Positions 9,887 through 34,312 of a stretch of DNA of 64,000 nucleotides are shown here, piece after piece. Under the pieces are notes generated by a model, which was not told where the DNA came from, searched no databases, and was given only the letters and a program-made list of their open reading frames with translations. How positions within the stretch are numbered: the stretch's first letter is position 1; every line of letters starts with the position of its first letter. Position numbers and translations under genes: made by a program. Source of the DNA: a virus (Duplodnaviria > Caudoviricetes); the IMG/VR virus record IMGVR_UViG_3300028410_000746, one strand, 5' to 3'.

Positions 9887-12800
9887 ATGACAGGCGACTT
9901 CAACGGCTGGGTGCTTCGTAAGCCACGGGTAGCAGCTTCCAACGCCAACACCACCGCTGAACCTGATGTCGTCGTGCGCGAGCAGGATGAGGCCGCGTAT
10001 CGCGCCTCCTACCTCGACAACGTGAGCGCTACGGGGTCGGAGTACCTCGTCCGTACTGCACAGACCGGTGACCTCGTGGTCCCCTCGTCGATCACCGAGA
10101 TTGCGAGCCCCTTTGATGGCTCCTTGCCGACCGCGCTCGTCTTCACGTTCAACACGCAGGGTCGCGCCGTCGCTGCGCCCGTGCTCCCCGCAGATGTGAC
10201 GCCCCTTCCGGACAGCGTGGACACGTCTGCCGGCCTGATCACCTATCTGGTCGCCCCTGGTGTGGCACCCACCGTCACCTTTGTACCTGCACCCCTGTCT
10301 GTCGAGTACACCCGCAACGACTCGGGGCGTACGCGCTTTGGATACGATGCGCGCGTGTCCCGTTGGGAGACCCTCCCCGGAGGCTCACCCGAGTCCCTCG
10401 GTCTGGTGCCTGAAACCGGCCTCCTCACGCTCCCTCTCGTTGAAGCTGATGCAGCGGGCGCGCCGGCCCCTCCTCGCGTCCTGCTTGGCAATCCGGACCG
10501 TCTGTTGGGGACCCTCGTGGACGTCACACAGCTCCTGGGTGAAGACGCGTTCGCGGATTACCGTGATGGCATCCTTGACCCTGCGTCTGGAGAAGGGGCG
10601 CTGAACGTGGAGACGGGGGAGCTTCGACTCGCCCCGTCCTTGACGGTAGGATTCGAGGCTCAGGAGGCCTTCTTTACCCGGCGCAACTTCTTCGCCTTTG
10701 ATGCGTCAACGGGACGCGTCGGGATCATCGGAGAGGACCTCCTCTTGAACCCGTTGCCCCTGGTCGGAGAGGAGCCCCTGCTTCGCGTAGGGTACGGCTC
10801 GTATCTAAACGCGTCCGTAGGGGCGGGCTCTCCGGTGGGCAGCGAGCAGGCACGTGTTGATCCGCTCACGGGTCGAGTCAACTTGAGCGCGGCTCTTGAG
10901 GCTCAATCAGAGGGCTTAGCTCTCTACTACGATGGGGTTCTTACGGGGACCGCGACGCCTCAGGCTCCTACAGTGCTCGGAGACCTCCTCTCCAACCAAT
11001 CGGGCCTCTCCAATGTGGACCTCCTGGAGTACGAGCCGGAGGCGCTGGTGCTCTATATCGAACAGACCGGGGAGGCGGTGCGCGAGCTGGAGTTCGTGGC
11101 CGACCCGTCGGACTTCACTGAGGCGCGCAACCTCCCTCCCACGAAGGCGCAGGTCGCCCGGTCAGATGGGTCCGTTCGCTTGAGCCAGCGTTTCGTTTCG
11201 GCCAACCTCTCGCGTGATCTTGTGGCGGGCTCCACGGACCTCACGCTCGAACGTGGGCTGACGTTTCGGATGGGCCGATCACCCCTTGACCCAACCAACG
11301 CAGCCGGGCTCCCGGACGGCCAAGGCGTCTTGCGCCTGGAAGATGAGCTGCTGGGCCCCGTTCGCAGTGGGCCTTCCGCGTTCCTGACTCAGGTGCCCCT
11401 GGTCGACGTCGCAGGTTATGCGGCAGACACCTTTTACCGTCTGGGGAGCGGGGCCCAACGGCGCGTACTCGTCCCGGATGAGGAGGTGATCTATGATTTT
11501 GATACCCGTCAGCTCCTGTGGGCCCAGCGTCGTACCACCTCACAGACGATCTCTCAGCGCACGTTCTCCGTACGCGTCCCGGATCAGGTCCTGCTCAACC
11601 GTAACTACAGCTTCGAGCTGAACCGGGGCAGCGGCTTTGAGGCCCTGGAGGATGGCGTCAACGCCTCCGTGGACTTCGACATTGGGGAGATCCGCTTCAC
11701 CCAGACGCAGGGTGAGGTTCTGATTGAAGACGTCGCGACCGTGGCGGGACAGGAGTTCACGTTCTTGACCGAGGACCTCTCCGGGGTCGTCATTTCGCTG
11801 GTGGACCTTGACCGGCCCCTGCTTCGTACAGGCCTGAACGCCTACACGATCACGGGCATCGCGGGTAGCGTGGTGACCGTGGAGGGGGACGTCCAGGAGA
11901 GCGGCTCCGTCGCTGTCGAGATCATCTCCGCGCCCGAGCCCGTGTACGCGTACGCGCTCGCGCAGGTGAACCTCAACCCGGACATCGTGGCGGCGTTCCT
12001 GGTCCGCGAGGTGGACAGCTCCGGGACCGTCTACGCTCCGGGGACCACAGGAGAGGTCTATGCGGTCTCGGGCGGAGTCCGTCGTGATGTCGTACGGCTC
12101 GCCTCAACCGTTCTCGGAGAGGCACAGGATGCCTTGACGCTTCCTGCGTTTGCACAGGGGGCCGAGGCTGTCTTTGAGATCTACCTTGGGAGTGATCTCC
12201 TGGTAGAGGTCGGCGGGACGCCCAACCAGGGTGAGTACCGCATCATGGGCGTGGACTTGGTGCTCTCCTCGGCGGACGTGCTGGCCAACCCCAAAGAGCT
12301 GGTTACGCTGGACCCGAGCCTGAGCACGGCGCGCGCGACCGGGGACGTGGAGCTGCTGGTCGCTACCCGCGAGCTGGGGTTCCCTCTTGACCTCGCAGTC
12401 GTAGACCTCTACGTACAGGTCGAGGCGCGTATCCAGGACCGCCTCCTCTACTTCTCCCAGCCTTTCGCTGCGGGAGATCGCCTGAGGGCGCGCTACCGTA
12501 CCGCTGATGAGGTTGAGGTGGAGGAAGAGGTAGGCTTTCGCGTCGTGGAGGATGCCGTGATCGTGAGCGCGACCGAGGCGACCTACGGGGCTGGACGCCT
12601 CCTCGACCCGAACCGCGCTCCTATCATACTCGTCAATGGAGCACGCACAGACCTCCCGGTAGATCCGGTGGCGGGCACCATCAACACCAGCTCGGTTCGT
12701 ACGGGGCGCACGATCAGCGTGAGCTACGCCGCACTCGATGCCAAGGGTGGGGAACAGACCGCGAGCCTTCTCCAGACGCCCGTGTCTCCTGATGTGGTGT

Positions 12801-15800
12801 TCGCTCCTGGGACCAGCCAGACCTTGCGCGGTGATCAGACCGACGACCTCTTCCTGGGTGCGTTTGTCCAGGCGGGCTCAACGAGCTTCACCGTGGCGAG
12901 CGTGCCGACCTATGATGGAACGCAAACCACCTTCGAGGTCGAGCCTTCGCTCCCTCAAGAGGTACGCAATCCGATCACTCTTGTCAGCGGGACGGTGTTT
13001 GACTTCGAGGTACTCCCCACGCTTGCCTTTGATGCCCCCGTGCAGGGCTCGACAACCTTGCGCGTCTTCTCAGACGTGACAGGCCTCCTCAAGGCGCAGC
13101 GGGTGCTCGTGCTCGACTCGGACGCTTACTACGTCACCGACGTCACCTTCGACGGTGGCCAGACTGTCCTCTCCTTGGCGAGCCCGCTCGCGCGCGCATA
13201 CAGCTCTCCCCTGGCGTCTCAGTCCGTGTTTACGGTGTATGGCCCCGGTGCTCAGGTCCTGTTGACCGAGAAGACGGGACTCGACGGAGGCCTCGTTGAG
13301 GTGATCCGCCGCGCCGCAAATGGAGACCTTACGGTAGTAGATCCCTCGACCTACCTGTTTGAGCCTGCGGGTCGTCTCACTCTGGACCCTACCCTGACGG
13401 CTCCGCTGTCTCGGGGAGAGGTGGTCTTCTTGCGGTACACCGCGCTCGATCCGGTAGGCCCCACGACTCTTGGGGGACAGCTCTTCTTGCCTCGCTTCCG
13501 TGGGACCTACACGCAACGGGTCAACGCCTCCGAGACCAATGGCTACCTGGGGTCGAACCTGTACGTGAGCGCGACCTTGCGCGCGCCTGACACCTTCTAC
13601 TTTCGCGTCCTCCCTCTCGCGGAATGGTCCGAGGAGGTCGCTCAAGGCTTGACGACCTCTTCAGGCACGGGCCCCGTGGTCTCTTCGTTCGCGACGACGC
13701 CCCTGTCAGATCAAGGTATCCAGACCCTGGTTGGGGAAGGGGGAGACCTCTACGATACCGACCGCGCCGCGCGTCGCTACCTTTCGTTCTACAATGACCT
13801 CGTGACCGCCTTCGAGAACGTCCAGGAGGTCCTGGATGGTCGAGTGATCGGAGACCGTGACGGCAAGTTCCGCTTCACCGTCCGTGCAGACTCGACCCCT
13901 GGAGGTGAGGACCCGATCACGGGACGCCTGCTTCCCTACTACATCAACCCGGCCAACCCTGGAGTGCGTCCGACGAGCGTTCAGATCGGGGACACGGGAG
14001 ACCTGACCTTGCAGACCGGGCTCGTCCAGAACAACCTCGACGACATCCTGCTCACCTCCAAGCGCCCCTTCTCCCTGAACATCCTCGGGTTCACGATCGA
14101 CTACACAGGCACGTTCAAGCGTGCCTGGGAGCCCTCACGCCTCTCGCGTCTCTACCCCGAAGAGTCCACGGTCCAGACGATCACGGTGCCCCCTCTTGGC
14201 GGAGGCGGCAGCTACACGTTTGGAGACGATGGCGGGCAGATCCTGGCAGACTCGGGCGTCACGGGGGTCCTGGCGATCAAGGGTATCCGTCCGCGCGGGT
14301 CCGCCGCCACGGTTACGAAGGTGACGCCCGGAGATCCGCTCGTGCTGTCTTGCGCGCAGACCTATGACCCGATCACAGGCGACCTCTCCAACGCTCCCTA
14401 TGACCTCACCACAGGTGACCCCTCGCGCGCGCGCCCGCCGTTTGAAGTAGGTAGCCGGGTCGACATAGGCCGGGTCGTCTTTAGCCGAAACGGTGAGGAT
14501 GTCACGAGGACCGAGGTGCTCGTGGCTCGGGACTTGGTGGTCGACTCGGTGACCGCTTCAACTCTTGAGCTGGTCGAGGGTGCAGGCACGGCAATCGGTT
14601 CGGTAAATACACGAGCGGGAGATACGGTGTACGAGGCTACGCCTCTGGACCTCCCCGGAGTCGCAGACTTGGCATCGCTCGACCCGGCCGACATGCCCTT
14701 CTACCGCAACCCACTGGACGTGACCCTGGACGGAGCGACTGGAGAAGTCATTAACCCGACCCTACCCGGATTCTTTGCGACCTTGCTCGGTCAGAAGGTG
14801 CCTCCTCCCGGCACTCTGCTCGATCTGACCGTGAGCTACCAGAATACGAACACGTCTCCTCGTCGTCCTCCCGCTCTTGATGGAGGTGCGGCCAATGACG
14901 ATGGGGACCTCAGCGTCCCGTTCGTCTCTCCAATGCCGGACTCGGAGCTGTCTCGTCTGCCTGCCGAGCTGGCTGCGATCACGACGCTACTCTCCAACAC
15001 GGAGCCCGGCGTCTACGTGTCCGCGGCGACGCGTCTCTCGGCCACGACCCTCTCGACGTCTCTGGACCTCACTGGCCTTGGAGTGGGAGTCCAGGGGTTC
15101 ACCCTCCTTGAAGGTTCTCCTGTGGTCTACTCCTCTTCGGAGGTGCCGGGACCCAACGTCTTGACCCTGGCAGCGTTTGAGTATGAGGACCTGACGGCTC
15201 CCTTTGAGGTGCCTGACCTCTTCGCGGGTTCTGGTACCGTAGCGGGCGCGGTCCTTACCGACGCGGGCACGGACTTCACCGCGTTCTCGGGAGCGACGAT
15301 CACCCTCAATATTGACGGCGGAGCCTCTTACCCGGTGAGCGTGCTCTCCAACGGGTCTCTTACGGCTACGGGCGTGATCGCGGAGACGGGCGCGCAAAGC
15401 TACACGTTGAGTGCGAGCGGGGTAGGCTCCATCTCCACGGACTTGACCACTCTGGAGGCTCCTGGAGTTGACTTCACCTCGGCGTCCGGGCCCTTCACCG
15501 TCGCACGTCCGTTCAATGGCGGCCTCTCTCCCATCACCTTCCTCGTGGGAGAGGGCTCAGACGGATCTCTCGTGCCAGACCTCATCCCTTCAGGCTTCAA
15601 CGGACCGTTGGCAGTGGGTCCACTGGTGCCGGTAGCCTCAGGGACCGCTCAGGTGTCTGTCACAAACGTGCTCAGTACCCTGGACTCCCTGGCATCTGTG
15701 GCTCCAGGAGACACGCTCATCATTGCCTCTTCGTCTCCCAACGCTGGCCGCTACCGGGTGGGTGCAGTAGGCGCGACGACGTTGACCCTGGATGTGGGAG

Positions 15801-16720
15801 CGGACGCGAGCATCTGGAACACCTTCTTCTGGGACAATGAGGGCGGAGGCATCACTTACCCTGTGGACTACACGGTCGTGCGTCCTCGCCGCTACAGCGT
15901 GGAGATGGAAGACTACCGCGAGGAGCTGGCACGTCAGCGGGTGATCTATGAGGACAACGCCAACGCGCCGGCTGACATCATTGGCTTCCTCACGGCGACG
16001 TCTTCCAACCCCGCCACGCCCTTGAAAGAGCGGCTGGACGCTCTTGACGCCCTCCTGTTGCCGGCTCCTTTCCTTACGCTTACCGGCGTGGCGGAGACGG
16101 GCGCGCAGACCTTGACCGGTGGCGTGGACTTCGTGGTGGAGGGGGTGGAGACGGGAGACCTCGTGCGCGTGGACGCGGGTATCAATCGAGGCTTCTACTT
16201 CGTCACTGGAGTCTCCAGCGCAGCGATCACCCTGGACGGCTCGAACCCTTACGTCACCTACACGCTGAGCAACGACGGCGCTACGGACTACACGGTCACC
16301 AAGGCGGAGGGGTTCCAGGACCTCACGTACCAGCTCGTGCTCTCGGAGATCTACGGACTTGACCAACGCATCGAGCGTCTGGACGCGGGTATCCGAGGGG
16401 TCGACACGGACACGGACGACCTTCTGGGAGTGCTTCCGTACGGTAGCCTGACAGGAGACTACACCGACGACACCCTCACGGCCCACCAGACGCAAGCTCA
16501 GGCGAGGTTGGACCGTCTACAGGTGGTTCCCACGCTTGCTCAGGACATCGAAGGCATCTTGAAGGGGTCTGAGGCCCTGTATGATACGCGGTATGCCTGG
16601 GTAGACTATCGCGCGAACCTTGAAACAGGTACCCTGCCAAGAATCCGTCGATACCTTGCTACGGTAGACAAAGAGAAGGAGCGACGCTTGAGGGAACTCA
16701 CTCGCGCCGGTTCAACTTGA
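9887..16720 (+). CDS. Very large virion structural protein (2277 aa; putative baseplate/tail)
   Basis: Uninterrupted, acidic, beta-rich ORF within the baseplate gene neighbourhood. Confidence 0.65.
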   Translation: MTGDFNGWVLRKPRVAASNANTTAEPDVVVREQDEAAYRASYLDNVSATGSEYLVRTAQTGDLVVPSSITEIASPFDGSLPTALVFTFNTQGRAVAAPVLPADVTPLPDSVDTSAGLITYLVAPGVAPTVTFVPAPLSVEYTRNDSGRTRFGYDARVSRWETLPGGSPESLGLVPETGLLTLPLVEADAAGAPAPPRVLLGNPDRLLGTLVDVTQLLGEDAFADYRDGILDPASGEGALNVETGELRLAPSLTVGFEAQEAFFTRRNFFAFDASTGRVGIIGEDLLLNPLPLVGEEPLLRVGYGSYLNASVGAGSPVGSEQARVDPLTGRVNLSAALEAQSEGLALYYDGVLTGTATPQAPTVLGDLLSNQSGLSNVDLLEYEPEALVLYIEQTGEAVRELEFVADPSDFTEARNLPPTKAQVARSDGSVRLSQRFVSANLSRDLVAGSTDLTLERGLTFRMGRSPLDPTNAAGLPDGQGVLRLEDELLGPVRSGPSAFLTQVPLVDVAGYAADTFYRLGSGAQRRVLVPDEEVIYDFDTRQLLWAQRRTTSQTISQRTFSVRVPDQVLLNRNYSFELNRGSGFEALEDGVNASVDFDIGEIRFTQTQGEVLIEDVATVAGQEFTFLTEDLSGVVISLVDLDRPLLRTGLNAYTITGIAGSVVTVEGDVQESGSVAVEIISAPEPVYAYALAQVNLNPDIVAAFLVREVDSSGTVYAPGTTGEVYAVSGGVRRDVVRLASTVLGEAQDALTLPAFAQGAEAVFEIYLGSDLLVEVGGTPNQGEYRIMGVDLVLSSADVLANPKELVTLDPSLSTARATGDVELLVATRELGFPLDLAVVDLYVQVEARIQDRLLYFSQPFAAGDRLRARYRTADEVEVEEEVGFRVVEDAVIVSATEATYGAGRLLDPNRAPIILVNGARTDLPVDPVAGTINTSSVRTGRTISVSYAALDAKGGEQTASLLQTPVSPDVVFAPGTSQTLRGDQTDDLFLGAFVQAGSTSFTVASVPTYDGTQTTFEVEPSLPQEVRNPITLVSGTVFDFEVLPTLAFDAPVQGSTTLRVFSDVTGLLKAQRVLVLDSDAYYVTDVTFDGGQTVLSLASPLARAYSSPLASQSVFTVYGPGAQVLLTEKTGLDGGLVEVIRRAANGDLTVVDPSTYLFEPAGRLTLDPTLTAPLSRGEVVFLRYTALDPVGPTTLGGQLFLPRFRGTYTQRVNASETNGYLGSNLYVSATLRAPDTFYFRVLPLAEWSEEVAQGLTTSSGTGPVVSSFATTPLSDQGIQTLVGEGGDLYDTDRAARRYLSFYNDLVTAFENVQEVLDGRVIGDRDGKFRFTVRADSTPGGEDPITGRLLPYYINPANPGVRPTSVQIGDTGDLTLQTGLVQNNLDDILLTSKRPFSLNILGFTIDYTGTFKRAWEPSRLSRLYPEESTVQTITVPPLGGGGSYTFGDDGGQILADSGVTGVLAIKGIRPRGSAATVTKVTPGDPLVLSCAQTYDPITGDLSNAPYDLTTGDPSRARPPFEVGSRVDIGRVVFSRNGEDVTRTEVLVARDLVVDSVTASTLELVEGAGTAIGSVNTRAGDTVYEATPLDLPGVADLASLDPADMPFYRNPLDVTLDGATGEVINPTLPGFFATLLGQKVPPPGTLLDLTVSYQNTNTSPRRPPALDGGAANDDGDLSVPFVSPMPDSELSRLPAELAAITTLLSNTEPGVYVSAATRLSATTLSTSLDLTGLGVGVQGFTLLEGSPVVYSSSEVPGPNVLTLAAFEYEDLTAPFEVPDLFAGSGTVAGAVLTDAGTDFTAFSGATITLNIDGGASYPVSVLSNGSLTATGVIAETGAQSYTLSASGVGSISTDLTTLEAPGVDFTSASGPFTVARPFNGGLSPITFLVGEGSDGSLVPDLIPSGFNGPLAVGPLVPVASGTAQVSVTNVLSTLDSLASVAPGDTLIIASSSPNAGRYRVGAVGATTLTLDVGADASIWNTFFWDNEGGGITYPVDYTVVRPRRYSVEMEDYREELARQRVIYEDNANAPADIIGFLTATSSNPATPLKERLDALDALLLPAPFLTLTGVAETGAQTLTGGVDFVVEGVETGDLVRVDAGINRGFYFVTGVSSAAITLDGSNPYVTYTLSNDGATDYTVTKAEGFQDLTYQLVLSEIYGLDQRIERLDAGIRGVDTDTDDLLGVLPYGSLTGDYTDDTLTAHQTQAQARLDRLQVVPTLAQDIEGILKGSEALYDTRYAWVDYRANLETGTLPRIRRYLATVDKEKERRLRELTRAGST

Positions 16721-17092: not shown

Positions 17093-19324
17093 ATGGCAGA
17101 TTGGCAGAATCTGGAGGTAGACCTCTCGGGGGTACAGGCGGGGGTTGATGGTACACAGGCGGTCTCGGACGCGGTGAGTGCCGTGGGGCAGATTGCGTCG
17201 GCTTTGCTTGGCCTGTTGCGGACCTTCACCGTCCCTTCCTTGCCCAATCCCATCGCCGGCGCAACCATGTTGCTGATCGCACAGCTTGAGGACCTCCTGG
17301 AGAGCCTGGGAGATACCGGAGCGTTTGGGCTCTTCCTGTTGCCCACGACTCTGGACGACCTCGCAGACAGCGCTGGTGGGTACGCACGCTTCGAGCAGCG
17401 CGTGGTAGCGTCCTTCTACGACACGGCGGACGCCGAGCGTCCTCAGGTGGGCCAAGCAGGTACGCTGGGCGGGCTAGTGATCTACGTCAACGCTCCCAGT
17501 CCGGCCGGCATCATCGAGAAGGCCTTGGCCCTGGCGAGGCTCTTTGGCCAGCGTCCGGAGGTGTCTTACCCCTCCCCCATAAGCCTTCGAGCTACCCCCG
17601 CGTCAGACCTCGGCGTGGCCATCCCCGGCGTGATCGACATCTACACGCAAGGCATCGACCCGCCCACCACGATCCTGCTGGAGTGGGAGGAGCCCAAGAG
17701 CACGCAGAACATCTTCTTCGACCTATTCGCGGCCAACAAGTTCTACATCGAACGCTCCCGATCACGGGAAGGCAAGCGCCTCACCGTGACTCAACCCTCT
17801 ACCATTCAGATCGACCCTCTCGCGCGTCGCCGTAACGCGCCACCGGAGTATCGCGAGCCCGTGCTCGATGAGAAAGGCGCCGTGACGACCGTGTGGGAGC
17901 CCCTCGACCCCTCCAACCCGTTCCTCGACGCAGACGACGCAGACGAGGGAGAAGGCCGCCTCGGAGCCAACTTCCTCGCGGGAACCTACTCGACCGTCTT
18001 GCGCGGCCTCACTCCGGGACAGGATGAGGGGTATTACTACCGTATCCGGAGTGTCCCCGAGAACACCGTGTTGGCGAGCCGACCGGTCGAGACGACTGAT
18101 GCCGGGGGCGTGACCGCACAAGAGATCGCGTATGAGTTGAAGCTGGACGGCAAGCCTTATCAGGGCTCTCCCCCCTCGTCTCCCGTCTATGGATTCATCC
18201 CGGAGATCCCCAAACAGACGGGGGGCGCAGCGTTCGACCTCCCCACGGCCCTGCTCAACGTCTACCGCGCCGCGTACCTGCTACGCTTTGACACCACGGT
18301 CTTTGACGACAGCTCTCAGCCCTTGACGGGCTCGGGTATCCTCAACCCGATCACGCCACAGACGATCCTTGACCTCCCCCCGGACGACTTCGACTTTGAC
18401 GGTACGGGCTCAGTCTCGGCGGCGTTCGAGTCGCAGTCTCCAGGTGGCTTTCGATCCACCGAAGACGGCGTGCGGTACTTCTCGGGTGAGTTCTTTCCGG
18501 AGGTGTTCTTTGAGCAGGGACCTCCAGGCTACGCAGACTCGAAGCGGAACGTGGCAACGCTGGGGGCGATCACGTCGTCGTCAGCTCTGGAAGATGACCC
18601 GTTCGCAGGAGCGCGTGAGCTGTTTGCGGCCAAGCTCGGCCTTACCGTTCGGGAGCGGTATCGCCTGTATGTGGACGAGGTGGCCACAGATAAGATCGAA
18701 CGGATACTACCCCTCATCGCACGCAACGAGACGCTCCTGGGGGCTATACGGACATCCTACGTTGGATTCGAGGCGGACCTTCTGGAACTCCTCACGGGAT
18801 TCACGACAGACTTCACGCTGATCGAGCGTGAGGACCTGCGAATCGCCGTGGCGAGCCTGATGGTCCTCTTTGATGGGCAGATTCGCCCCGGTCAGCCTCC
18901 CAACTGGAGATCTGTCCGGCTCTTCAAGGACGTTCTGCCTGAGGTTGATCGCGTGGGCGCGGAGCTTCTGGCTGCCATACAGAGCATCGAGCTGGCGACC
19001 GCCGACGTGAGCACACGCCTTGACGCGACAGTGGAGGGCTTGCAGAACCGTTTGGCCGCGCTCGACGCGGTAGTAGACGCCCTTGATGAGATCATTTCGT
19101 TCCTGGATGCGGTCTCCGGGACGGCGCTCACGGCTTCGATCCTATTCATCCCGCCTCAGACTGGAGGCGCTCCTGCGTTCGTGAACGAGGTCCTCGCGGC
19201 ACAGGACAAGCCCACGAGCGAGCCCACCGACTACGGCGGAGGTTTCGTGCTCGCAGCCGGAGGGGCGGGTCCTGGGGACGGCGCCGCGCTCTTTGATGCG
19301 CTACGGTTCGTCTTCGGCTTCTAG
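17093..19324 (+). CDS. Probable virion structural protein (743 aa)
   Basis: Long acidic ORF with helical termini; in the structural cluster. Confidence 0.6.
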   Translation: MADWQNLEVDLSGVQAGVDGTQAVSDAVSAVGQIASALLGLLRTFTVPSLPNPIAGATMLLIAQLEDLLESLGDTGAFGLFLLPTTLDDLADSAGGYARFEQRVVASFYDTADAERPQVGQAGTLGGLVIYVNAPSPAGIIEKALALARLFGQRPEVSYPSPISLRATPASDLGVAIPGVIDIYTQGIDPPTTILLEWEEPKSTQNIFFDLFAANKFYIERSRSREGKRLTVTQPSTIQIDPLARRRNAPPEYREPVLDEKGAVTTVWEPLDPSNPFLDADDADEGEGRLGANFLAGTYSTVLRGLTPGQDEGYYYRIRSVPENTVLASRPVETTDAGGVTAQEIAYELKLDGKPYQGSPPSSPVYGFIPEIPKQTGGAAFDLPTALLNVYRAAYLLRFDTTVFDDSSQPLTGSGILNPITPQTILDLPPDDFDFDGTGSVSAAFESQSPGGFRSTEDGVRYFSGEFFPEVFFEQGPPGYADSKRNVATLGAITSSSALEDDPFAGARELFAAKLGLTVRERYRLYVDEVATDKIERILPLIARNETLLGAIRTSYVGFEADLLELLTGFTTDFTLIEREDLRIAVASLMVLFDGQIRPGQPPNWRSVRLFKDVLPEVDRVGAELLAAIQSIELATADVSTRLDATVEGLQNRLAALDAVVDALDEIISFLDAVSGTALTASILFIPPQTGGAPAFVNEVLAAQDKPTSEPTDYGGGFVLAAGGAGPGDGAALFDALRFVFGF

Positions 19325-21967: not shown

Positions 21968-22034
21968 AACTATCTCAGTCTTCGAGGCTTCGAATGCCCA
22001 CGGTCTGGTAGGTCTCAAAGCCCACAACCTCTTC

Positions 22035-22490
22035 TGGGACATCCCCGCGTGCGCGGGGAACACGCTCCCCTTCGATACAGAGATCTTCTTTCTACCGGGA
22101 CATCCCCGCGCACGCGGGGAACACGGGTAGAACAAGAAGATGTATGAGAGGGGATCCGGGACATCCCCGCGCACGCGGGGAACACCGGACGAGCATGGGG
22201 AGACGTATTCGCCCTACCGGGACATCCCCGCGCACGCGGGGAACACTTGAAGCTGGAAGGATGCACGAGATGTGCGTGCGGGACATCCCCGCGCACGCGG
22301 GGAACACACAGGTGTGATCACAAGAGCATGTCGCCTCATCGGGACATCCCCGCGCACGCGGGGAACACGTCAAAGCTGGTCACCTTTGGAGCGTGAACGG
22401 CGGGACATCCCCGCGCACGCGGGGAACACCATGACACCGACACACCCGCACTTGGTGCATCCGGGACATCCCCGCGCACGCGGGGAACAC
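22035..22490 (-). CRISPR. CRISPR array 1, type I-E: 8 repeats, 7 spacers of 32 nt
   Basis: 29-nt repeat GTGTTCCCCGCGTGCGCGGGGATGTCCCG with a 61-nt period. Confidence 0.99.
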
Positions 22491-22583
22491 TCTTCAAATG
22501 TTCAAGCCTTCGGAAGTGTACCTAACCCCCTGTATTCGCTCAGGAATTCTGTTGGCATGGGGTACACCGTTTTACTTTACCAA
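22491..22583 (-). promoter_or_regulatory. Leader of array 1
   Basis: Begins TTGGTA and ends AGA before the first repeat; TTGTAC-N17-TAAAGT overlaps its start. Confidence 0.85.
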
Positions 22584-22609
22584 ATCGTACCCTGCGGTAC
22601 AAGCCTGAA

Positions 22610-24817
22610 TCAGGAGGCCTTCTTGGTGGGGGCGCGGTAGTAGGTGCGCGTCCACTCCATCTGCGTCTGAGAGCCCCAGGTGAGGAGGCTCAGGATGAGG
22701 TCGTTGGCGTCGGCACCCTGACCCTCAATGCGTCCGAGGACGTTGCGGAGCTGGCGCCAGTGGCCGTTCAAGGTGCCTCCCGAACACAGGCGCTCGAACG
22801 AGCGCTCCTTGATGTCACGAGACTGCGCGAGGACGCGCGCGACGGGGCGGTTGCCCTTGAAGCCGGTGGGCTTGAGGCCCGCGAGCAGGACCGCCAGGAG
22901 GAACACGCGCTCCTGCAACTCGGGGGCGTTCTCACCAAGGTTACGCTCCACCACCTTCTCCAGGGCCTTCTCCAGCAGGATGGCGGGGCGCATGTAGCGT
23001 ACGTCCTGGAGGTTCTTGGCGCGAGAGAGCGCGACGCGGCCGGAGCCCTTGTCGTGGTGGAGGTTGCGCCACCACTTGTGGACCACGGAGAGGATCTCAT
23101 CCTTGTGGGCGTATACGATGTTGTTCATGGGGTTCTTCTCTCTCTTGGTGGAGGTGCCGCAGAGTTTGAGGAGCTGCTTTTCGAGCCCGGCTCGTTCCCT
23201 CACGGCGGATGTGATGGTGCGGGTGTTCATGCGCGATTTGCGAGTGACACGGCCTCCAACGAGGGAGTCGAAGATCGTGAGCGCGGTGGTCGCGAGGAGG
23301 CGCTTGTAGGGCGTATAGACCATCTCCTCAAGCTCCTCCCGGTTGGTCGTGAGCTTGACCTTGGCGAGCGCGTCGTATGCAGCCTGTTCGGTGTGTGACC
23401 ACAGCTCGGAGTTGTTCCGGCCTCCCAGGCAGGCGACCTTCGCGCGGAGCACCTTATCCACCTCGGACGTGAGCTTGACCAGCGCCCCGAAGGTGTCCTC
23501 ATCACGCAGAGCCTGTGAGCCCTCGAAGATGAAGATGTACTTCTCGAAGAAGCTCACCGTCTTGCCCGCAAACATGTTGAATCCGAAGACACGCAGCGGG
23601 GGAAGCCCTCCCCATACCTCATCCCAATGCTCCGCGACCTCATCGTACAGGAAGGCCTTGCGCTTGGTGTGGGTGATGATTGGGGGCGTGTGGAGGGTCT
23701 CGGAGTAGGCGTGGGAACCCAGAACGTTCCACGTGCGCCTGTTGGTGACGGTCTGCACAGCGCGGACATCTTTCACATCTTTGGGGGTCCACTTGCCGTT
23801 GACGCCCATCGTCTTGAGGTTCTTGAGGGTGGTGGCGTTGTTGGGGAGCTGCCAGACACCCGACATGGGGATGCACTGACGAGACCCCGGCAGACCTTCC
23901 CACTTCTCGGACTGCGCTGTGTAGCGCTGCCGGTTGCCCCAGGGCTGCGCATCCACGTAGTCCAGGAGCCCGTCCTCATCCGGCTCCGGCAGGACCCACT
24001 CACGCGTGAGGTGCCAGAACGCGGTCAAGGGGTGGTAGTCCAGGTCGTGAGCGCGCCACCCCTCGATCTGACTCTCTTCGACCCAGGGGAACTCGAACTC
24101 GGGGACGGTCTCCTGTCCCCACAGAGCGTTGATTTCAGGTTCAGTGAGGATGTTGTTGAGGACCTCCTCGCAGAGGTCGCGGCCGCTGAAGACGTACCAC
24201 AGGCTGCCGTTGTTTCCGTAGCCGGGTCGCGATGTGCCACGTGAGAACTTGTTCCCCGCGTCCATGCGAAACTCGGCCGCCAGGATGAACGCGATGGCGT
24301 CCCCAGGCGTCAGACGCTGCCGGGGATCACGGCCCAAGTCCATGCTGAAGGGGAGCGGCCGCGTGACCTTCTCCGAGTCGAAGTCGAAGCCTGAGGAGGA
24401 GGACCCCAGCGCGTGCGTGTTGAAGCGGTAGCGGCCTATCTCAGTGGCGCACGGCAGGTCGGACTTCTTGATCTTTCTGATATCTTCGGTCCACTCGCGC
24501 AAGGCGGGCGTGGCCTGGAACGCACGGTACCCCGGCCCGTAGACGTCGAAGAAGTCTTCCTCACTCAGAAAGCGCTTCTTGAAGTCGAGGTTCTCGCCGC
24601 GCGTCAGGTGCATCTCGACCCACTCGTCGTCGTCCTTGGGCGCGGCCACCGTCTGGACCAGTGCCTGAATGAAGTGTCGGACGCCCTCATTCATTACGGA
24701 GTGGGGGTAGTCGAGCTTGAGGCCGGGTTCCGTGAACTCGTGCGGTCGGATGAGCTTGGACTTTCCCGTGGCGTCCTGAACCCGAATCCAAGCGTCGGTC
24801 ATGAGATTGAGTGACAT
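22610..24817 (-). CDS. cas8e-cas11: Cas8e (Cse1)-Cas11 (Cse2) fusion protein
   Basis: N-term MSLNLMTDAWIRV (Cse1-like). C-terminal ~170 aa WWRNL...GRVALSRA...ERSFERL...WRQLRNVL...DLILSLLTW...EWTRTYY (Cse2-like). No stop codon between them. Confidence 0.85.
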   Translation of the reverse strand: MSLNLMTDAWIRVQDATGKSKLIRPHEFTEPGLKLDYPHSVMNEGVRHFIQALVQTVAAPKDDDEWVEMHLTRGENLDFKKRFLSEEDFFDVYGPGYRAFQATPALREWTEDIRKIKKSDLPCATEIGRYRFNTHALGSSSSGFDFDSEKVTRPLPFSMDLGRDPRQRLTPGDAIAFILAAEFRMDAGNKFSRGTSRPGYGNNGSLWYVFSGRDLCEEVLNNILTEPEINALWGQETVPEFEFPWVEESQIEGWRAHDLDYHPLTAFWHLTREWVLPEPDEDGLLDYVDAQPWGNRQRYTAQSEKWEGLPGSRQCIPMSGVWQLPNNATTLKNLKTMGVNGKWTPKDVKDVRAVQTVTNRRTWNVLGSHAYSETLHTPPIITHTKRKAFLYDEVAEHWDEVWGGLPPLRVFGFNMFAGKTVSFFEKYIFIFEGSQALRDEDTFGALVKLTSEVDKVLRAKVACLGGRNNSELWSHTEQAAYDALAKVKLTTNREELEEMVYTPYKRLLATTALTIFDSLVGGRVTRKSRMNTRTITSAVRERAGLEKQLLKLCGTSTKREKNPMNNIVYAHKDEILSVVHKWWRNLHHDKGSGRVALSRAKNLQDVRYMRPAILLEKALEKVVERNLGENAPELQERVFLLAVLLAGLKPTGFKGNRPVARVLAQSRDIKERSFERLCSGGTLNGHWRQLRNVLGRIEGQGADANDLILSLLTWGSQTQMEWTRTYYRAPTKKAS

Positions 24818-24858
24818 GGTGTGTCTCGTAGGTAGAGAGGGGAGGTGGGGAGGCGCGC

Positions 24859-25569
24859 TCAGAGCGTGTGCATGTGGGCGCTAAACTCGCGCCGCACCTT
24901 GTGGGACCCTTGACGGGTCAGATCGTGGGGCACATCACGACGGAAGGTTGACCGTCGGCTACCTTCGAGGCCAAAGTCTTCATCCCAGAACACCTGTCCC
25001 GGCACCACGGTTCGGTCAAGGTAGTAGAAGCTACTCGCCACGGCCTCCTCCAGACACTCACGCGGCGTGGTGGACTGTAGGACCCGTGGATTGAGAGGCG
25101 CGCTTGGCGGACAGCTCTTGCGGCCAAAGTAGATAGGCCAGTAGGGACGCTGGAGCGCCGCGATGATACCGTCGACGTCCTCGTCGGGTACCTGGAGCAG
25201 GACCACCCAGGTCTGGTCCTGGAGGTAGTACCTCTCCGAGGTCAGGGAGTCCGTCTTGGGGCTTTGCGGGTCCAGCTCCTCCTGGCGCGTGGTCACGTAG
25301 CCCTTGAAGCAGCGGATGAGGTGGTAGTCTCGAAGCGGCGGGGGGCTCACCGAGGCTCCCTCAAGCTGGAGCTGGACGCACGCCATCTTGATGGTGTTTG
25401 CCAGCCTCTGGTGGTGAGCCTGATCGTCACGCTCGATGCCTTGCGCGCACGCGATCATCCCGAGTATGGCCGATTTCGTCGGGCTCTGGTCCGTCGTGCG
25501 CAGCGCCGCGCGCGCCGCGTTTCCGAAGCTCATGAGAGGGGCTCGAATGTCGCAGGCGAGTGTTTGCAT
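24859..25569 (-). CDS. cas5e: Cas5e (CasD)
   Basis: APLMSFG...RTTDQSPTKSAILGMIACAQGIER...RYYLQD...YFGRKSCPP. Confidence 0.95.
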   Translation of the reverse strand: MQTLACDIRAPLMSFGNAARAALRTTDQSPTKSAILGMIACAQGIERDDQAHHQRLANTIKMACVQLQLEGASVSPPPLRDYHLIRCFKGYVTTRQEELDPQSPKTDSLTSERYYLQDQTWVVLLQVPDEDVDGIIAALQRPYWPIYFGRKSCPPSAPLNPRVLQSTTPRECLEEAVASSFYYLDRTVVPGQVFWDEDFGLEGSRRSTFRRDVPHDLTRQGSHKVRREFSAHMHTL

Positions 25570-25633: not shown

Positions 25634-26365
25634 TCAGAGGGCCACAAGGGCGGCGGCGGGCTTGAGAAGGACAAGGCCGGCCCCGAAGGCCTTGCCCCGA
25701 CCGATGCCGTTGCGCCACAGGGTCACGAACTTCTCGGGGTCGGTGACCTCGACGCGCGCCTCAAGCTGCACGAAGTCCATCGTAATGGGGTTGCGCCGTC
25801 CCACGCCCTGCTCGGAGAACACGGGGGTCAAGGCGGTGACCCTGTGCAGCTTGAAGCCGCCGTCCTCCGAGCGCCTCTCAAGCCACTCGAAGAGGAGGGC
25901 GTCGAGGTCGCGAGGCGTCTCCCCATTCGCTTCGCACATGAGCTTCTCGTAGGTCTGGAGACCCAAACGCTTGGAGCGCCCCTTGGGCACGATCCGCTCG
26001 TCACGGGTACAGACGGTGGCGTTGACCCATGCTCGGAGGTCGAGGCCGGCACCCATGTGCATCGTGGGCTGCTCGATCGTCTTGGTCAGAAGCTTCACGT
26101 AGCCGTGAGGGTCCGAGGGGATCTCCGTGGACTGGATGTAGAAGGAGGAGCCCTTGAAGGGGGTGAACATGAAGGGTCGGTCTTTGCGGTCCTCCACCGG
26201 GTCGAAGAGGTCCCAGACGAACTGGTGTGCGGTGTAGATGCCCTCGGACGTGTAGCGGGAGAGCTGCTCGATTCCCTTGGCCGTGAAGGTGGCGCGTGAG
26301 ATGTAGAGAGGGGTCGAGGTGGGGGGTGTGGTGGTGTTGAACGGGATGTTGACTTGCGTGCTCAT
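25634..26365 (-). CDS. cas6e: Cas6e (CasE) crRNA-processing endonuclease
   Basis: YTAHQFVWDLF; Gly-rich loop GIGRGKAFGAGLVLL; GGAG-ATG at 26365 (the track start at 26593 overextends). Confidence 0.95.
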   Translation of the reverse strand: MSTQVNIPFNTTTPPTSTPLYISRATFTAKGIEQLSRYTSEGIYTAHQFVWDLFDPVEDRKDRPFMFTPFKGSSFYIQSTEIPSDPHGYVKLLTKTIEQPTMHMGAGLDLRAWVNATVCTRDERIVPKGRSKRLGLQTYEKLMCEANGETPRDLDALLFEWLERRSEDGGFKLHRVTALTPVFSEQGVGRRNPITMDFVQLEARVEVTDPEKFVTLWRNGIGRGKAFGAGLVLLKPAAALVAL

Positions 26366-26441: not shown

Positions 26442-27788
26442 TCACTCGGCGGCGGCGGTCTCGGAGGCCTCCACGGCGATACCGAGCGTCTGGTAGATGG
26501 CATCCACGATGTCATCCAGGGTCGTACACACCTCGCCGCCCGACTCCAGGGCCGTGAGGTCCTTGGTCGAGGACCACGTGAGGACACGCTCATGGTCGAC
26601 GCCCACGCGGGTCACGATGCGGTTGTGGTGGTCCTCCAGGCGCGTGAGGGCCATCTGAAGAGGATCGTTGGACTCCACAGGCACCAGGAACGCGTCGGTG
26701 TACTGAGTGTTCTGGGTCTCCCCGATGGTCACCATCAGGTAGGGGGACGGGATGCTCGCAGCCATCGTGGACTGGTTACCCGAGGGGCGCACCATCACGA
26801 GAGCCTTGACGAAGGCGTGGATGGTCTCACGGAGGAGGTCCTCCTGACCGCTCCCGAAGCGGCGAGCCAGCTCACCGATGTGGAGGCCCACGTAGGCGTA
26901 GTTGACGCCCGAGGTGAAGCTCTTGTGGCCCATATGCGAGGCGCCCGTATTGGAGTTGAAGCAGTCCTGAGCCGAGAAGAAGTCGTCCTCCTCGGGCATC
27001 ACGCCGACGCCGATGGTGTGCGCGAACTGGACGCAGGCCGCTTCATTGTCCTGTGCGAGCTGCGCGACCATGCGGCCGAAGAGGCTCACGTCGACGTTGG
27101 GCATCCTCGTGAGGTCCGTGAAGCTCTTCGCGGTCTCAGTCAGGCTCTCGAAGACGACGGAGGGGTCCGTGAAGTCCAGACCCACCAGCGCCTCGAAGCC
27201 CAGCGTCAAGACCTCCTGCTCCGCCTGCTTGAGCTTGATGGCCGAGCCGAACATGCGGCCGTCCTTCTTGTCGCTCTTTTTGTTCTTCTTCTTCTTGGTG
27301 TCTCCTTCGGACTCGTTCGACTCGTCGTCGAGAGCGTCCTTGGTCGAGTACGGCGTGATGCCTCCCTCGGCGTACAGGGTACCATCCGCGATGAGGCCCT
27401 TGAGGAGCGTGAGAAGCGCCGCTTCGGTCTTCTTGGTGAGCTTGGCGCCCTTGAAGCACTGCGTGAAGAAGTTCGGCGTCGTCATCATGTAGGCGAGCAG
27501 CGCGGCGGCTCGATACGACCTCTCAGCCTCCTGGCCCGCCTCGACGGCCTTCTCACTCTTGAAGACCAGGAACGATCTCGTGTTGTCGCTCATGACCTTG
27601 CGCTGACGGAGCACATCGAAGTGCATGGAGGCACGAATCGCCGCCTTCTCCGCTTGGCTGGAGATGCGGTAGCGCATGGCGTTCCCGAAGAAGGAACTCT
27701 TGGGGTTACCCGCGTCATCGCGGTTGATGTTGCTGGGGGGCAGCACACCGAGCATGTGGAACTGGAGCTTTGTTTTCACGTTCATCAT
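26442..27788 (-). CDS. cas7: Cas7e (CasC)
   Basis: HMLGVLPPSNINRDDAGNPK...RISSQ; DVSLFGRMVA; QFAHTI; EDDFFSAQD; TSGVNYAY. Confidence 0.97.
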   Translation of the reverse strand: MMNVKTKLQFHMLGVLPPSNINRDDAGNPKSSFFGNAMRYRISSQAEKAAIRASMHFDVLRQRKVMSDNTRSFLVFKSEKAVEAGQEAERSYRAAALLAYMMTTPNFFTQCFKGAKLTKKTEAALLTLLKGLIADGTLYAEGGITPYSTKDALDDESNESEGDTKKKKNKKSDKKDGRMFGSAIKLKQAEQEVLTLGFEALVGLDFTDPSVVFESLTETAKSFTDLTRMPNVDVSLFGRMVAQLAQDNEAACVQFAHTIGVGVMPEEDDFFSAQDCFNSNTGASHMGHKSFTSGVNYAYVGLHIGELARRFGSGQEDLLRETIHAFVKALVMVRPSGNQSTMAASIPSPYLMVTIGETQNTQYTDAFLVPVESNDPLQMALTRLEDHHNRIVTRVGVDHERVLTWSSTKDLTALESGGEVCTTLDDIVDAIYQTLGIAVEASETAAAE

Positions 27789-27935: not shown

Positions 27936-30566
27936 CTAGAGGACTTGGAGTCCCAGGATGTGGTCGTAGATGAGGGTGACGGATACCGGGGCGCCCTTGG
28001 GGGAGAGCTTGGTCATGTTGACCCTCCACGCGTCGGCGGGTGCGCTGAGGTCGTCCACGGTCACGATCAACACGGAGTCGGTAGAGTGGAACGGGAGCTG
28101 CGCCAAAAGTTCGTGCTGCTCCGGGCTCGGGTCGAGCCGCTCTCCGGCCATGTACATGGGGATAGCGATGCCAGAGGCCTTGATGCCTCCGTTGTGGATA
28201 CGCCGGAGTCGATCGCCGTCAACGAAGTGGACCTCCCAGATGCACGTAGGGATGGCGTCTCGGGTGTGTATGGCCACGTTCTTACCCCACTTGCTGACCG
28301 ACTCACGGTAGCTGCGGGTGAAGTCGAGAGACCCCAAAACAGCCGATGCTCGCGTCTCCTGGTCACGGGCGGTGGAGGCTTGGTGCGAGCGGGCCAGACC
28401 GGCCGGAATCAGTGCGTTGATGTCGTCCAGGATCTCACGCGTATGGGTGGGAAGCTCCCAGGACCTCAAGGCACACATCGCCGCGCTGGCGTACACACGG
28501 CCTGCATCCCCATAGACGTAAGATGTCCCCCCATGATGAGGGGAGCCGCTGAGCCATTGAGCGTGTGGAGTCCCGGCCAAGGAGGGCGTGAACAGGCCCA
28601 TCTCGACGTGCACCTCTTCCCCACTCTCGTGACGCAGGACGCGACCCGAGCGCTGAATCAGGAGGTCGGCCTCGCATACATCGGAGACGCCCCAGTCAAA
28701 GCTGACATCCAAAGACTCCTGGAGCACCTGCGTGCATATGACGATGTAGCCCTCACGCTCTTGGGGATCGGCGCCCTTACCGAAGCGACGCAGCACCTCG
28801 GCGTCACGTACCTCACGGTGTCCGACCGTGTAGCGAGAGTGCAGCAAGAGCACTCGGTCATACCCTGACAAGGCTTCATAGGCCGCACAGGCGGCGCGCA
28901 CGGTGTTTCGGAACCACACCACCGCCTCACCTCGGTTGGCTCGCCGGTGCAGCTCTTCCACGATGGGGTCGAGCCCACGCCGATCCTCTTCAAAGACGTT
29001 CCAGTGCACGTGCCGGATCTGGTGTGCGTCCACCGAGACCACGTTGATGTGGCCGCTGGAGCTGACGTGCGTGAGCGCGGGCAAGGGGACATCGGGGAGG
29101 TCTACAACCTCTCCTCGATACGCGGAGGCGAGCGCGCGGCGTGTCTTGGAGTCGCAGGTGGCGCTCATGGCGATCACGGGCTGTCCCTGTCGCCCGCAGT
29201 AGGCGAGCAGGTTACAGAGCAGAGGGAGCATGTGAGCGTCGAAGGCGTGGACCTCATCTATCAGAAGCACGGTACGGGTGAGCGCGCTCAGTCGCATGGG
29301 CGCAAAGTATCGCCCGATCGTCGCCAGGAGGGCTTGGTCTATTGTGCAGACATTGATTTGCGAGAACATGCTCTGTCGGGAGGACTTGAGCAGCCACTCG
29401 GAGGCGCTAATCAGGCCTCCATTCGAGTTGCGTTGAGCCTTCCACGGCTTGAATTCACTTCGAGTCGAGTGAATGAGCGCCATCGTGACGGGCTCATCAA
29501 AGGTTGCCTCCGTCCAGGCGTGCGCACGCCCGTAGAGGCCGTTGGCGGTAGCGCGAGTAGGCAACGCCAACGTCAGCCCTTTGTAGTCGCCATCACGCAT
29601 CATCTGACGCGCGAGCGCGAGCCCTACCTCCGTCTTACCCGCCCCCGTAGAGGCCTCGATGAGGACAAACCCGTCCGCAGAACTCAAGAGGGTCTCAGCA
29701 CCTACCTGGAGAGGCCGAGGTTCCCAGGTATCGTCGAGGAGACCGCTCCAGAAGGAGTAGGTGGTAGAGAGGGGCGTGTAGAGGATCTCCACGTCTGTAC
29801 ACGCCCTCTCCGCTTGAGGCTGTGCGATGGTCTCCCAATAAGCTCTCGGGTCCATACGCGCGCCACGCAGCGGGAAGTATTCAGGCGTGGAGCCCAGCCA
29901 ATCCGAGATCATCCCGACGCCCGCCAGGAGGTAGCTCGCGAAAGGCAGGTCCGGAGGGTTGGAGTAGTCGCCACGCATGGGTCCAAATACGCCCTGGATG
30001 ATTTCGGAGAGGTACGCAGTCAGGCGCTCGTCGCACCCAGGCACTCCCCACTGGAGCTGAGCCGTACGTGGGGTGGCGCCTTCTCGCTTCTGATGAGGCA
30101 AGGCGTAGCCGTGATGGCTCAGCGCGCTATGCAGCAGCGTCGTGATGTGGCGTCGTTCCTGACGCCCAGTACCGCTCTTGAGGTACTCCCGGATCACGTT
30201 CCTGCGTTCCCATCCCACCAGATCGTGACGGGCTTCGGTCTCACGCGCACCATCAGGCTGGGGGGTGATATCCAGGAGCGTACAGGCGGGTGCGCTTCGA
30301 GCCTGGAAGTTGTCCGTGAGCTTACCGATGTCATGGCAAGCGTAGAGCATGGGGAGGTCATGCCACAGGTCGTACATGCTCACACCCAAGGCCTCCGACA
30401 AGGGACGCCACCAACGCTCCTCGTGCCTGAGCAAGTGATTCACGACCGCCGCGACGTCGAGGTTATGATACACCACGCGGTGAATGGCAGTCACGGCCTC
30501 TTGTGAGCCGGGAGGCTGGTCTGTCTTGGCCCAACAGTCCCACATACCGATAGGTTTGGTCGTCAT
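27936..30566 (-). CDS. cas3: Cas3 HD nuclease-helicase
   Basis: YHNLDVAAV, CHDIGK, SHHG; EASTGAGKTE, IDEVH, MSAT, TQVLQESLDV, QRSGRVLRH. Confidence 0.98.
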   Translation of the reverse strand: MTTKPIGMWDCWAKTDQPPGSQEAVTAIHRVVYHNLDVAAVVNHLLRHEERWWRPLSEALGVSMYDLWHDLPMLYACHDIGKLTDNFQARSAPACTLLDITPQPDGARETEARHDLVGWERRNVIREYLKSGTGRQERRHITTLLHSALSHHGYALPHQKREGATPRTAQLQWGVPGCDERLTAYLSEIIQGVFGPMRGDYSNPPDLPFASYLLAGVGMISDWLGSTPEYFPLRGARMDPRAYWETIAQPQAERACTDVEILYTPLSTTYSFWSGLLDDTWEPRPLQVGAETLLSSADGFVLIEASTGAGKTEVGLALARQMMRDGDYKGLTLALPTRATANGLYGRAHAWTEATFDEPVTMALIHSTRSEFKPWKAQRNSNGGLISASEWLLKSSRQSMFSQINVCTIDQALLATIGRYFAPMRLSALTRTVLLIDEVHAFDAHMLPLLCNLLAYCGRQGQPVIAMSATCDSKTRRALASAYRGEVVDLPDVPLPALTHVSSSGHINVVSVDAHQIRHVHWNVFEEDRRGLDPIVEELHRRANRGEAVVWFRNTVRAACAAYEALSGYDRVLLLHSRYTVGHREVRDAEVLRRFGKGADPQEREGYIVICTQVLQESLDVSFDWGVSDVCEADLLIQRSGRVLRHESGEEVHVEMGLFTPSLAGTPHAQWLSGSPHHGGTSYVYGDAGRVYASAAMCALRSWELPTHTREILDDINALIPAGLARSHQASTARDQETRASAVLGSLDFTRSYRESVSKWGKNVAIHTRDAIPTCIWEVHFVDGDRLRRIHNGGIKASGIAIPMYMAGERLDPSPEQHELLAQLPFHSTDSVLIVTVDDLSAPADAWRVNMTKLSPKGAPVSVTLIYDHILGLQVL

Positions 30567-33712: not shown

Positions 33713-34312
33713 CCTTTCCCCACGCACGTGGGGATGTTCCCATGTAGCAAGACATGTAGTAGGAGGCGCTGGGCCTTTCCCCACGCACGTGGGGATGTTC
33801 CCTACAGGAGTTCCTTGGGGGCTATCTGAGGGGGCCTTTCCCCACGCACGTGGGGATGTTCCCGTGGGGCGGTCTGGATGAGGCAGGCATCCTCACCTTT
33901 CCCCACGCACGTGGGGATGTTCCGCGTCCGCATCAAGGGCCGCAACCTGGGTGGGCCCTTTCCCCACGCACGTGGGGATGTTCCCTCACCTCGAAGGGTC
34001 CCCGCCCCCTCAAAGTCCCTTTCCCCACGCACGTGGGGATGTTCCCTTCCTCCAGGATCTCAGTGTCTTCGGGAACGTCCTTTCCCCACGCACGTGGGGC
34101 TGTTCCTGTTCCTGTTCCTGTTCCTGTTCCGCCTTGGCTCCCAGGACCATCGCTCGTGACGAGCCCTTCCCCGTACACGCGGGGGTGTTCCCTCTGTGCT
34201 ACCGCAGCGTCGACCTTGGCCCCCTTCCCCGCACACGCGGGGATGTCCCGTCCAAAATCGTCCGTGGTCCCCCGTGAGGCCCTCTTCCCCACGCACGTGG
34301 GGACTTTGTTCC
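33713..34312 (+). CRISPR. CRISPR array 3: 10 repeats, 9 spacers
   Basis: Repeat CCTTTCCCCACGCACGTGGGGATGTTCCC. Repeat 7 is expanded by CTGTTC x5; the last three repeats diverge. Confidence 0.98.

Follow-up and report, generated by a model that had tools for sequence, protein, structure and literature searches.

Type I-E serves as the reference for Cascade, and cas11 is regarded there as a gene of its own. We describe here a type I-E operon in which cas8e and cas11 form a single gene. The operon lies in a 64,000-nucleotide stretch (hereafter, the window) of the IMG/VR virus record IMGVR_UViG_3300028410_000746 (Duplodnaviria; Caudoviricetes), and the gene in question, on the minus strand (Table 1), is with certainty a Cas8e–Cas11 fusion in a type I-E context. 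At the boundary between its two parts, an in-frame ATG (codon 564) is located where free Cas11 proteins begin, is retained in the related fusions of other phages, and has nucleotide features like those of a translation start. Judging from the sequence, the best explanation is probably a working internal start at Met564, which would supply free Cas11 in addition to the tethered copy.

The Cascade of subtype I-E contains two Cas11 subunits, and subtypes I-B, I-C and I-D make their Cas11 by internal translation (McBride et al. 2020, bioRxiv 10.1101/2020.04.18.045682). A first-pass annotation of the window had taken this as its premise, rightly in view of that study, when it suggested that the same hidden-Cas11 strategy had arisen in I-E. 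McBride et al. used a conserved start with a predicted ribosome-binding site as the criterion before bench tests, and proposed that the tethered Cas11 nucleates the free copies in I-B, I-C and I-D. In a literature search of incomplete coverage, we found no description of a natural Cas8e–Cas11 fusion in I-E or of internal Cas11 translation in that subtype.

Domain Organization and Occurrence of the Fusion

The Cse1-like and Cse2-like regions that the first-pass annotation had recognized in one open reading frame (ORF) of 735 amino acids (aa) were recovered both by profile searches and by structure prediction. Residues 4–500 match the Pfam family CRISPR_Cse1 (PF09481; E = 1.6e-18; 67.6 bits, cut-off 24.7), and residues 579–729 match the NCBIfam model casB_cse2 (TIGR02548; 38.0 bits, cut-off 28.5). 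With NCBIfam TIGR02547, the Cas8e part scored 41.6 bits, below the cut-off of 70.05, identifying it as a divergent member of the Cse1 family. An AlphaFold2 model of the fusion protein, based on a 63-sequence alignment (mean predicted local distance difference test score 79.6; predicted template modeling (TM) score 0.74), consists of the Cas8e part with its four-helix bundle (residues 442–553), a coil (554–562) and the Cas11 helices from residue 563 onward. Foldseek matched the model to E. coli Cse1 and Cse2 with TM scores by target of 0.71–0.73 and 0.66–0.72, respectively. Since the Cas11 helices in the model start at residue 563, after the coil, a complete Cas11 domain begins exactly with Met564.

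We considered the possibility that the single ORF is an artefact, caused by a lost stop codon or an assembly frameshift, and found nothing in its favor. Two other assemblies, a 373-kb ENA contig and a Logan contig from another run, stem from other samples and carry exactly the same DNA across the fusion region (8.2 kb and 5.3 kb). When 1.84 billion representative proteins were searched exhaustively with HMMER, the matches included two further full-length fusions, P0002 (726 aa, 31% identity; locus L002) and P0003 (718 aa, 30% identity; locus L003), as well as a third fusion, P0006 (688 aa), which was matched mainly via its Cse2 part. A 94%-identical copy of the P0002 fusion, L007, belongs to a phage whose 437-kb genome is complete and has terminal repeats. 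Both L002 and L007 have the gene order cas3-cas7-cas6e-cas5e-fusion found in the window; in L007 the fusion gene has an array on its 3' side, and the L002 contig stops just past the fusion gene. The P0003 gene follows cas5e. Similarity between the window protein and P0002 is continuous across the junction, which rules out a frame error. Because the DNA is the same in three assemblies and full-length fusions occur in relatives of ≈30% identity (L002, L003 and L007), we conclude that the fusion is not an artefact, an explanation to which we give almost no credence.

Word-indexed protein searches returned the query as the sole hit, further scans of viral contigs gave nothing beyond the 437-kb contig, and GenBank phages gave no match. 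Scans of metagenomes and genomes gave ordinary Cas8e N-termini only, the named records being mostly from Alphaproteobacteria.

The P0006 fusion (loci L004, L005 and L006; the 688-aa gene is at L004:5515-7581) is found in a locus of canonical order, fusion-cas7-cas5-cas6-cas1-cas2, and is therefore probably an independent fusion. In this locus, cas3 was not present within 11 kb, and genes of phage-like appearance lie upstream. A 158-aa gene upstream of the P0006 fusion was considered as a hidden Cas11 and rejected, as it had no similarity.

A Candidate Start Codon at the Domain Boundary

The in-frame ATG at 23128 had been singled out in the first-pass annotation as the start of a 172-aa, Cse2-sized product, and this holds: translation from Met564 would give a protein of that length with a mass of 19.6 kDa. 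Met564 is located 19 residues ahead of a conserved WW motif, four free Cas11 proteins (168–172 aa) start 15–21 residues ahead of it, and in the alignment Met564 coincides with their N-termini. In the phage clade, comprising the window, L002/L007 and L003 (27–31% identity), each of the three lineages has an in-frame start here, with alignment columns that are the same or differ by one (ATG, ATG and GTG, respectively), and the GTG of the third lineage has a GGAG six bases upstream. The P0006 lineage also has a GTG at the junction, but without the supporting features. In the window, the internal start reads ATGA (23125–23128, minus strand), so that the ATG shares bases with a TGA in the +1 frame, in the manner of overlapping stop–start gene pairs; this overlap is confined to the window lineage and may be due to chance.

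The purine-rich tract that the first-pass annotation had noted before the ATG is present: AAGAGAGAGAAG, at 23146–23135, lies 6 nucleotides (nt) upstream of ATG 23128 and holds one of just two AGA codons among the 57 Arg codons of the gene. The tract is insufficient by itself to mark a start, as its Shine–Dalgarno (SD) duplex is moderate (−5.2 kcal/mol) and is equalled or beaten at seven other in-frame starts of the gene. The genuine start codons of cas3, cas7 and cas8e, with similar GAGAG-type elements, have weaker duplexes (−2.7 to −3.5 kcal/mol).

Met499 was evaluated as an alternative start (23321–23343, minus strand), based on a strong SD-like element, GGGAGGAG...GAGGAG (−10.3 kcal/mol). 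It was rejected because the mRNA there is strongly folded (initiation score 11.0, as defined below), the codon is not conserved, and it falls within the Cas8e helical bundle. The SD-like element at Met499 derives from Glu-Glu codons.

Initiation Score, Codon Choice and Synonymous Constraint

To each in-frame start codon we assigned an initiation score, defined as the SD duplex energy plus a start codon term minus the local mRNA folding energy (−35 to +35), so that lower values are better. For weak mRNA folding, the junction falls within the top 1% of the gene in the window and within the top 4–6% in L002, L007 and L003, and the junction start ranked first among the in-frame starts of each fusion gene (1/29 in the window, 1/45 in L002, 1/52 in L003 and 1/45 in L007). 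When 15 parameter sets with different window sizes and anti-SD sequences were used, the junction came first in 15 of 15 for the window and in 14 of 15 for L002, and ranked from first to sixth in L003. The score of −1.0 at the window junction is better than those of the true starts of cas3, cas7, cas6e, cas5e and cas8e (1.7 to 8.5). None of the 623 in-frame internal starts in 14 other long genes of the window reached this value, the best of them scoring 3.8.

The contribution of codon choice was determined by recoding the 24 flanking codons synonymously 1000 times, following the codon usage of the gene itself. Scores as good as that of the real sequence were reached by only 0.2% of the recodings in the window (p = 0.002) and by 1.3% in L003 (p = 0.013). 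Synonymous constraint could be assessed between L002 and L007, which differ at 149 of 726 codons. The longest stretch free of differences comprises 50 codons (152 nt, from −75 to +76) and is centred on the junction ATG. No longer identical run occurs anywhere in the 8-kb alignment of the two operons, and in permutations a run of this kind had P = 0.0008 across the gene and P = 0.0058 within the less variable C-terminal third.

The same data must be weighed against a second explanation, in which the fusion is real and the internal start has fallen silent: as relics, the ribosome-binding site and ATG of the former cas11 gene would be kept only as linker codons (K-R-E-K-N-P-M), and the complex would contain a single, tethered Cas11. 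We consider this possible but doubtful. A number of observations support it, and thereby weigh against a working start at Met564. Linkers rich in Lys, Glu and Arg are purine-rich, G+C-poor and weakly folded as mRNA by composition, which gives part of the signal, and in L002, 49% of the recodings equalled the real score (p = 0.49), so that codon-level optimization is absent there and the amino-acid sequence alone accounts for the score; codon choice is nevertheless optimized in the other two of the three lineages. The initiation score is a simplified model of our own choosing, and the SD duplex is moderate, as described above, yet the junction score is an outlier relative to the 623 internal control codons. 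The suppression of synonymous change around the site likewise argues against a relic; the identical stretch in L002 and L007 could, however, be a recombination tract, and it concerns the relatives and not the window itself. A neutral relic should decay over lineages that are only ≈30% identical, yet a start codon was kept in all three.

The P0006 fusion bears on the same question. Its junction start ranks 25th of 33, the linker is rich in Pro and Ala, the mRNA is more folded there than the average of the gene, and no second cas11 is found nearby. Without an initiation signal or another cas11, a tethered-only Cascade may thus be viable. The relic reading is also in keeping with type I-F, where the helical bundle tethered in Cas8f is sufficient for Cascade to function (McBride et al.), and with E. 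coli, where Cas11 was reported to be dispensable for silencing and plasmid interference, Cascade tolerating its loss in both assays (PMC12235044). Against a single tethered copy in the window, the linker of 9–10 residues would not let one domain span both Cas11 positions.

Origin of the Fusion

The nearest unfused Cas8e, P0004 (522 aa; locus L027), is encoded in an operon with the order cas7-cas6e-cas5e-cas8e, followed after a gap of 72 nt by a separate cas11 gene of 175 aa. The start region of this cas11, GAAGAGAGGAAAGAA-ATG, has nearly the same purine tract as the window junction, AAGAGAGAGAAGAACCCC-ATG. Because of this likeness, the linker sequence K-R-E-K-N-P-M reads as a translated ribosome-binding site, and the fusion appears to have swallowed both the intergenic region and the cas11 start. 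Within the L027 operon, cas11 has the best initiation score, −5.1, compared to 0.5 to 2.6 for the other genes, as would be expected for a subunit that is required in two copies. In L027:9567-9644, cas8e and cas11 share the same frame and are separated only by a TAA stop and one in-frame TAG.

The retention of the same gene order in the unfused relative indicates that the fusion is evolutionarily recent. In our view, the phage clade probably represents an evolutionary intermediate, in which cas8e and cas11 of a I-E system have recently fused, the initiation region of cas11 still works within the linker, and Cascade contains one tethered and one free Cas11. The hidden-Cas11 strategy put forward for I-E in the first-pass annotation gains support from the position and conservation of the start, its score, the codon choice, the likeness to a ribosome-binding site and the synonymous constraint; the short protein itself is a prediction.

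Predicted Products and Cas11 Stoichiometry

In the scenario that we favor, cas8e would have read through into the adjacent cas11, in the gene order still seen in the unfused relative, leaving the ancestral ribosome-binding site and start codon of cas11 within the 10-codon linker, where in all likelihood they remain in use. A single mRNA would in that case be translated into both an 84-kDa Cas8e–Cas11 protein and a free 19.6-kDa Cas11 starting from Met564. The tethered domain would occupy the Cas11 position beside the helical bundle of Cas8e, with the distal position left to the free copy, thereby restoring the canonical two Cas11 subunits along a backbone of six Cas7 and a 61-nt CRISPR RNA (crRNA). 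The repeat-spacer unit of 29 + 32 nt and the I-E-type Cas7 point to such a canonical six-Cas7 backbone with two Cas11. Since the linker of 9–10 residues presumably pins the fused domain to the Cas8e bundle, the distal Cas11 site would be empty if no free copy were made. Initiation of ribosomes at Met564 and a stoichiometry of one tethered and one free Cas11 are thus what the sequence would predict.

No second Cas11 was detected in the complete 437-kb relative genome or in the 125-kb IMG/VR record of which the window is a part; only the fused Cas11 is present. Free Cas11 could conceivably come from a source other than internal initiation, namely proteolysis of the linker, an internal transcript, or supply by a host I-E system, but we regard this as very improbable. 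There are precedents: a C-terminal fragment of Cas8b was at first ascribed to proteolysis (McBride et al.), and huge phages are in some cases thought to use host Cas proteins (survey by Al-Shayeb et al. 2020, PMC7162821). The second array in the window, which has a different I-E-like repeat (see below), would be in keeping with host supply. Proteolysis or host supply would nevertheless leave the initiation-like nucleotide features unexplained. A sigma-70-like promoter for an internal transcript was not found in 22000–25000, although this is a weak test, and Cas11 proteins diverge so fast that a host copy fitting the phage Cascade seems unlikely. Internal initiation at Met564 remains the source of free Cas11 that we prefer.

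Comparison to Other Type I Systems

The closest known system is the internally translated Cas11 of subtypes I-B, I-C and I-D (McBride et al.; for Cas11b in Haloferax, PMC11899642). As in those subtypes, an in-frame start follows a GA-rich element at a domain boundary and is conserved among homologues, and the expected products, here predicted, are a full-length large subunit and free Cas11. The present case differs in its subtype, I-E, in which cas11 normally stands on its own as a gene, and in that what has been joined to the complete Cas8e four-helix bundle is a bona fide Cse2 domain.

The canonical I-E Cascade–Cas3 system of E. coli and T. fusca is made up of one Cse1, two Cse2, six Cas7, one Cas5 and one Cas6e. 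The phage operon shares with it all six protein families, the 29-nt repeats and 32-nt spacers, and the Cse1 and Cse2 folds seen in the model. The gene order is different, being cas3-cas8e-cas11-cas7-cas5-cas6e in the canonical operon and cas3-cas7-cas6e-cas5e-cas8e::cas11 in the window, L002 and L007, and the unfused L027 is arranged likewise. Further differences are the fusion of cas8e to cas11, the absence of cas1 and cas2, the extra segment in Cas7 and the carriage by a huge phage.

In type I-F Cascade, a small-subunit-like module is also tethered to the large subunit, the C-terminal helical bundle of Cas8f replacing Cas11. Both a conserved internal start and free Cas11 are absent from I-F (McBride et al.), unlike the phage fusion, in which a full Cse2 domain lies behind a start-like site. 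The CRISPR-Cas systems of huge phages (PMC7162821) resemble the present one in being carried by phages of several hundred kb, in mostly lacking adaptation genes and in having short arrays. The passages searched in that survey highlight a type I-C variant and types II and V, and they mention neither a I-E system nor a Cas8e–Cas11 fusion.

If Met564 is indeed used, the gene-within-a-gene rule for small subunits would extend to a fourth subtype, I-E, and to phage-borne CRISPR systems, and there would be a direct view of how the hidden-Cas11 layout of I-B, I-C and I-D arises from separate genes. The missing intermediate would then be supplied, with an unfused relative, a fused form with a retained start and a tethered-only form all available for comparison. 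Heterologous expression of compact phage Cascades might then need the internal start in order to obtain the right ratio of subunits. The fusion also offers a simple test of the idea of McBride et al. that a tethered Cas11 nucleates the minor filament.

The Operon, CRISPR Arrays and Phage Context

The fusion gene is the last gene of the operon, cas3-cas7-cas6e-cas5e-cas8e::cas11, all of which is on the minus strand (Table 1). With the exception of Cas8e on the NCBIfam Cse1 model, all Cas proteins of the operon passed the curated cut-offs. All the protein signatures place the system in type I-E.

Table 1. Positions of the fusion gene, its parts and the neighboring CRISPR-Cas features in the window.
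Feature	Position	Strand	Description and basis
cas8e::cas11 fusion gene	22610..24817	-	Single ORF, 735 aa, 83.9 kDa
Cas8e (Cse1) part: residues 1-553, ending in the four-helix bundle (442-553)	23159..24817	-	Pfam, AlphaFold2, Foldseek
Linker codons 554-563 (CGTSTKREKNP region)	23129..23158	-	AlphaFold2 secondary structure and alignment
Purine tract AAGAGAGAGAAGAA, candidate Shine-Dalgarno element	23133..23146	-	Near-identical to the L027 cas11 ribosome-binding site
In-frame ATG, Met564, candidate internal start	23126..23128	-	Initiation score -1.0, rank 1/29
Predicted free Cas11 reading frame	22610..23128, stop codon included	-	172 aa, 19.6 kDa, pI 10.2; TIGR02548, free-Cas11 alignment
cas5e	24859..25569	-	236 aa; TIGR01868, 142.1 bits (cut-off 68.95); strong SD AAAGGAGG; gene call in L028
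cas6e	25634..26365	-	243 aa; TIGR01907, 72.4 bits (cut-off 45.2)
cas7e	26442..27788	-	448 aa; PF09344, E 5.6e-58; TIGR01869, 182.1 bits (cut-off 178.05)
cas3, HD nuclease and helicase	27936..30566	-	876 aa; PF18019 (HD), PF22590, TIGR01587, 190.7 bits (cut-off 102.45)
CRISPR array	22035..22490	-	Eight 29-nt repeats (GTGTTCCCCGCGTGCGCGGGGATGTCCCG) and seven 32-nt spacers, 61-nt period; directly downstream of the fusion gene
Array leader	22491-22609		Between the fusion gene and the array

At 448 aa, Cas7e is longer than the family profile of about 360 aa, and carries a Lys/Glu-rich low-complexity segment around SNESEGDTKKKKNKKSDKK, which might contact the minor filament. The Cas7 homologues of L002 and L007 exceed even this length, with 463 and 496 aa. 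No match to Cas1 was found in the 125-kb record holding the window or in the complete 437-kb relative.

A second CRISPR-like array is located at 33838–34300 on the plus strand, with a 61-nt period and a different I-E-type repeat (CTTTCCCCACGCACGTGGGGATGTTCC). Its repeats decay toward the 3' end, a (CTGTTC)5 microsatellite stands in the place of one spacer, and the array is overlapped by spurious ORFs on both strands.

The carrier of the operon is a huge phage of about 373 kb from lake water, the fusion gene being present on the 373-kb contig as well as in the IMG/VR record. The operon has phage genes as neighbors, including those for baseplate J, a family A DNA polymerase and an intein-containing DnaB helicase. 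Two very large ORFs near the baseplate genes, at 9887–16720 and 17093–19324 on the plus strand (2277 and 743 aa), had no match in Pfam or PHROG. The DnaB-like replicative helicase (61666–63981, minus strand) is split by its intein, which carries a LAGLIDADG homing endonuclease domain.

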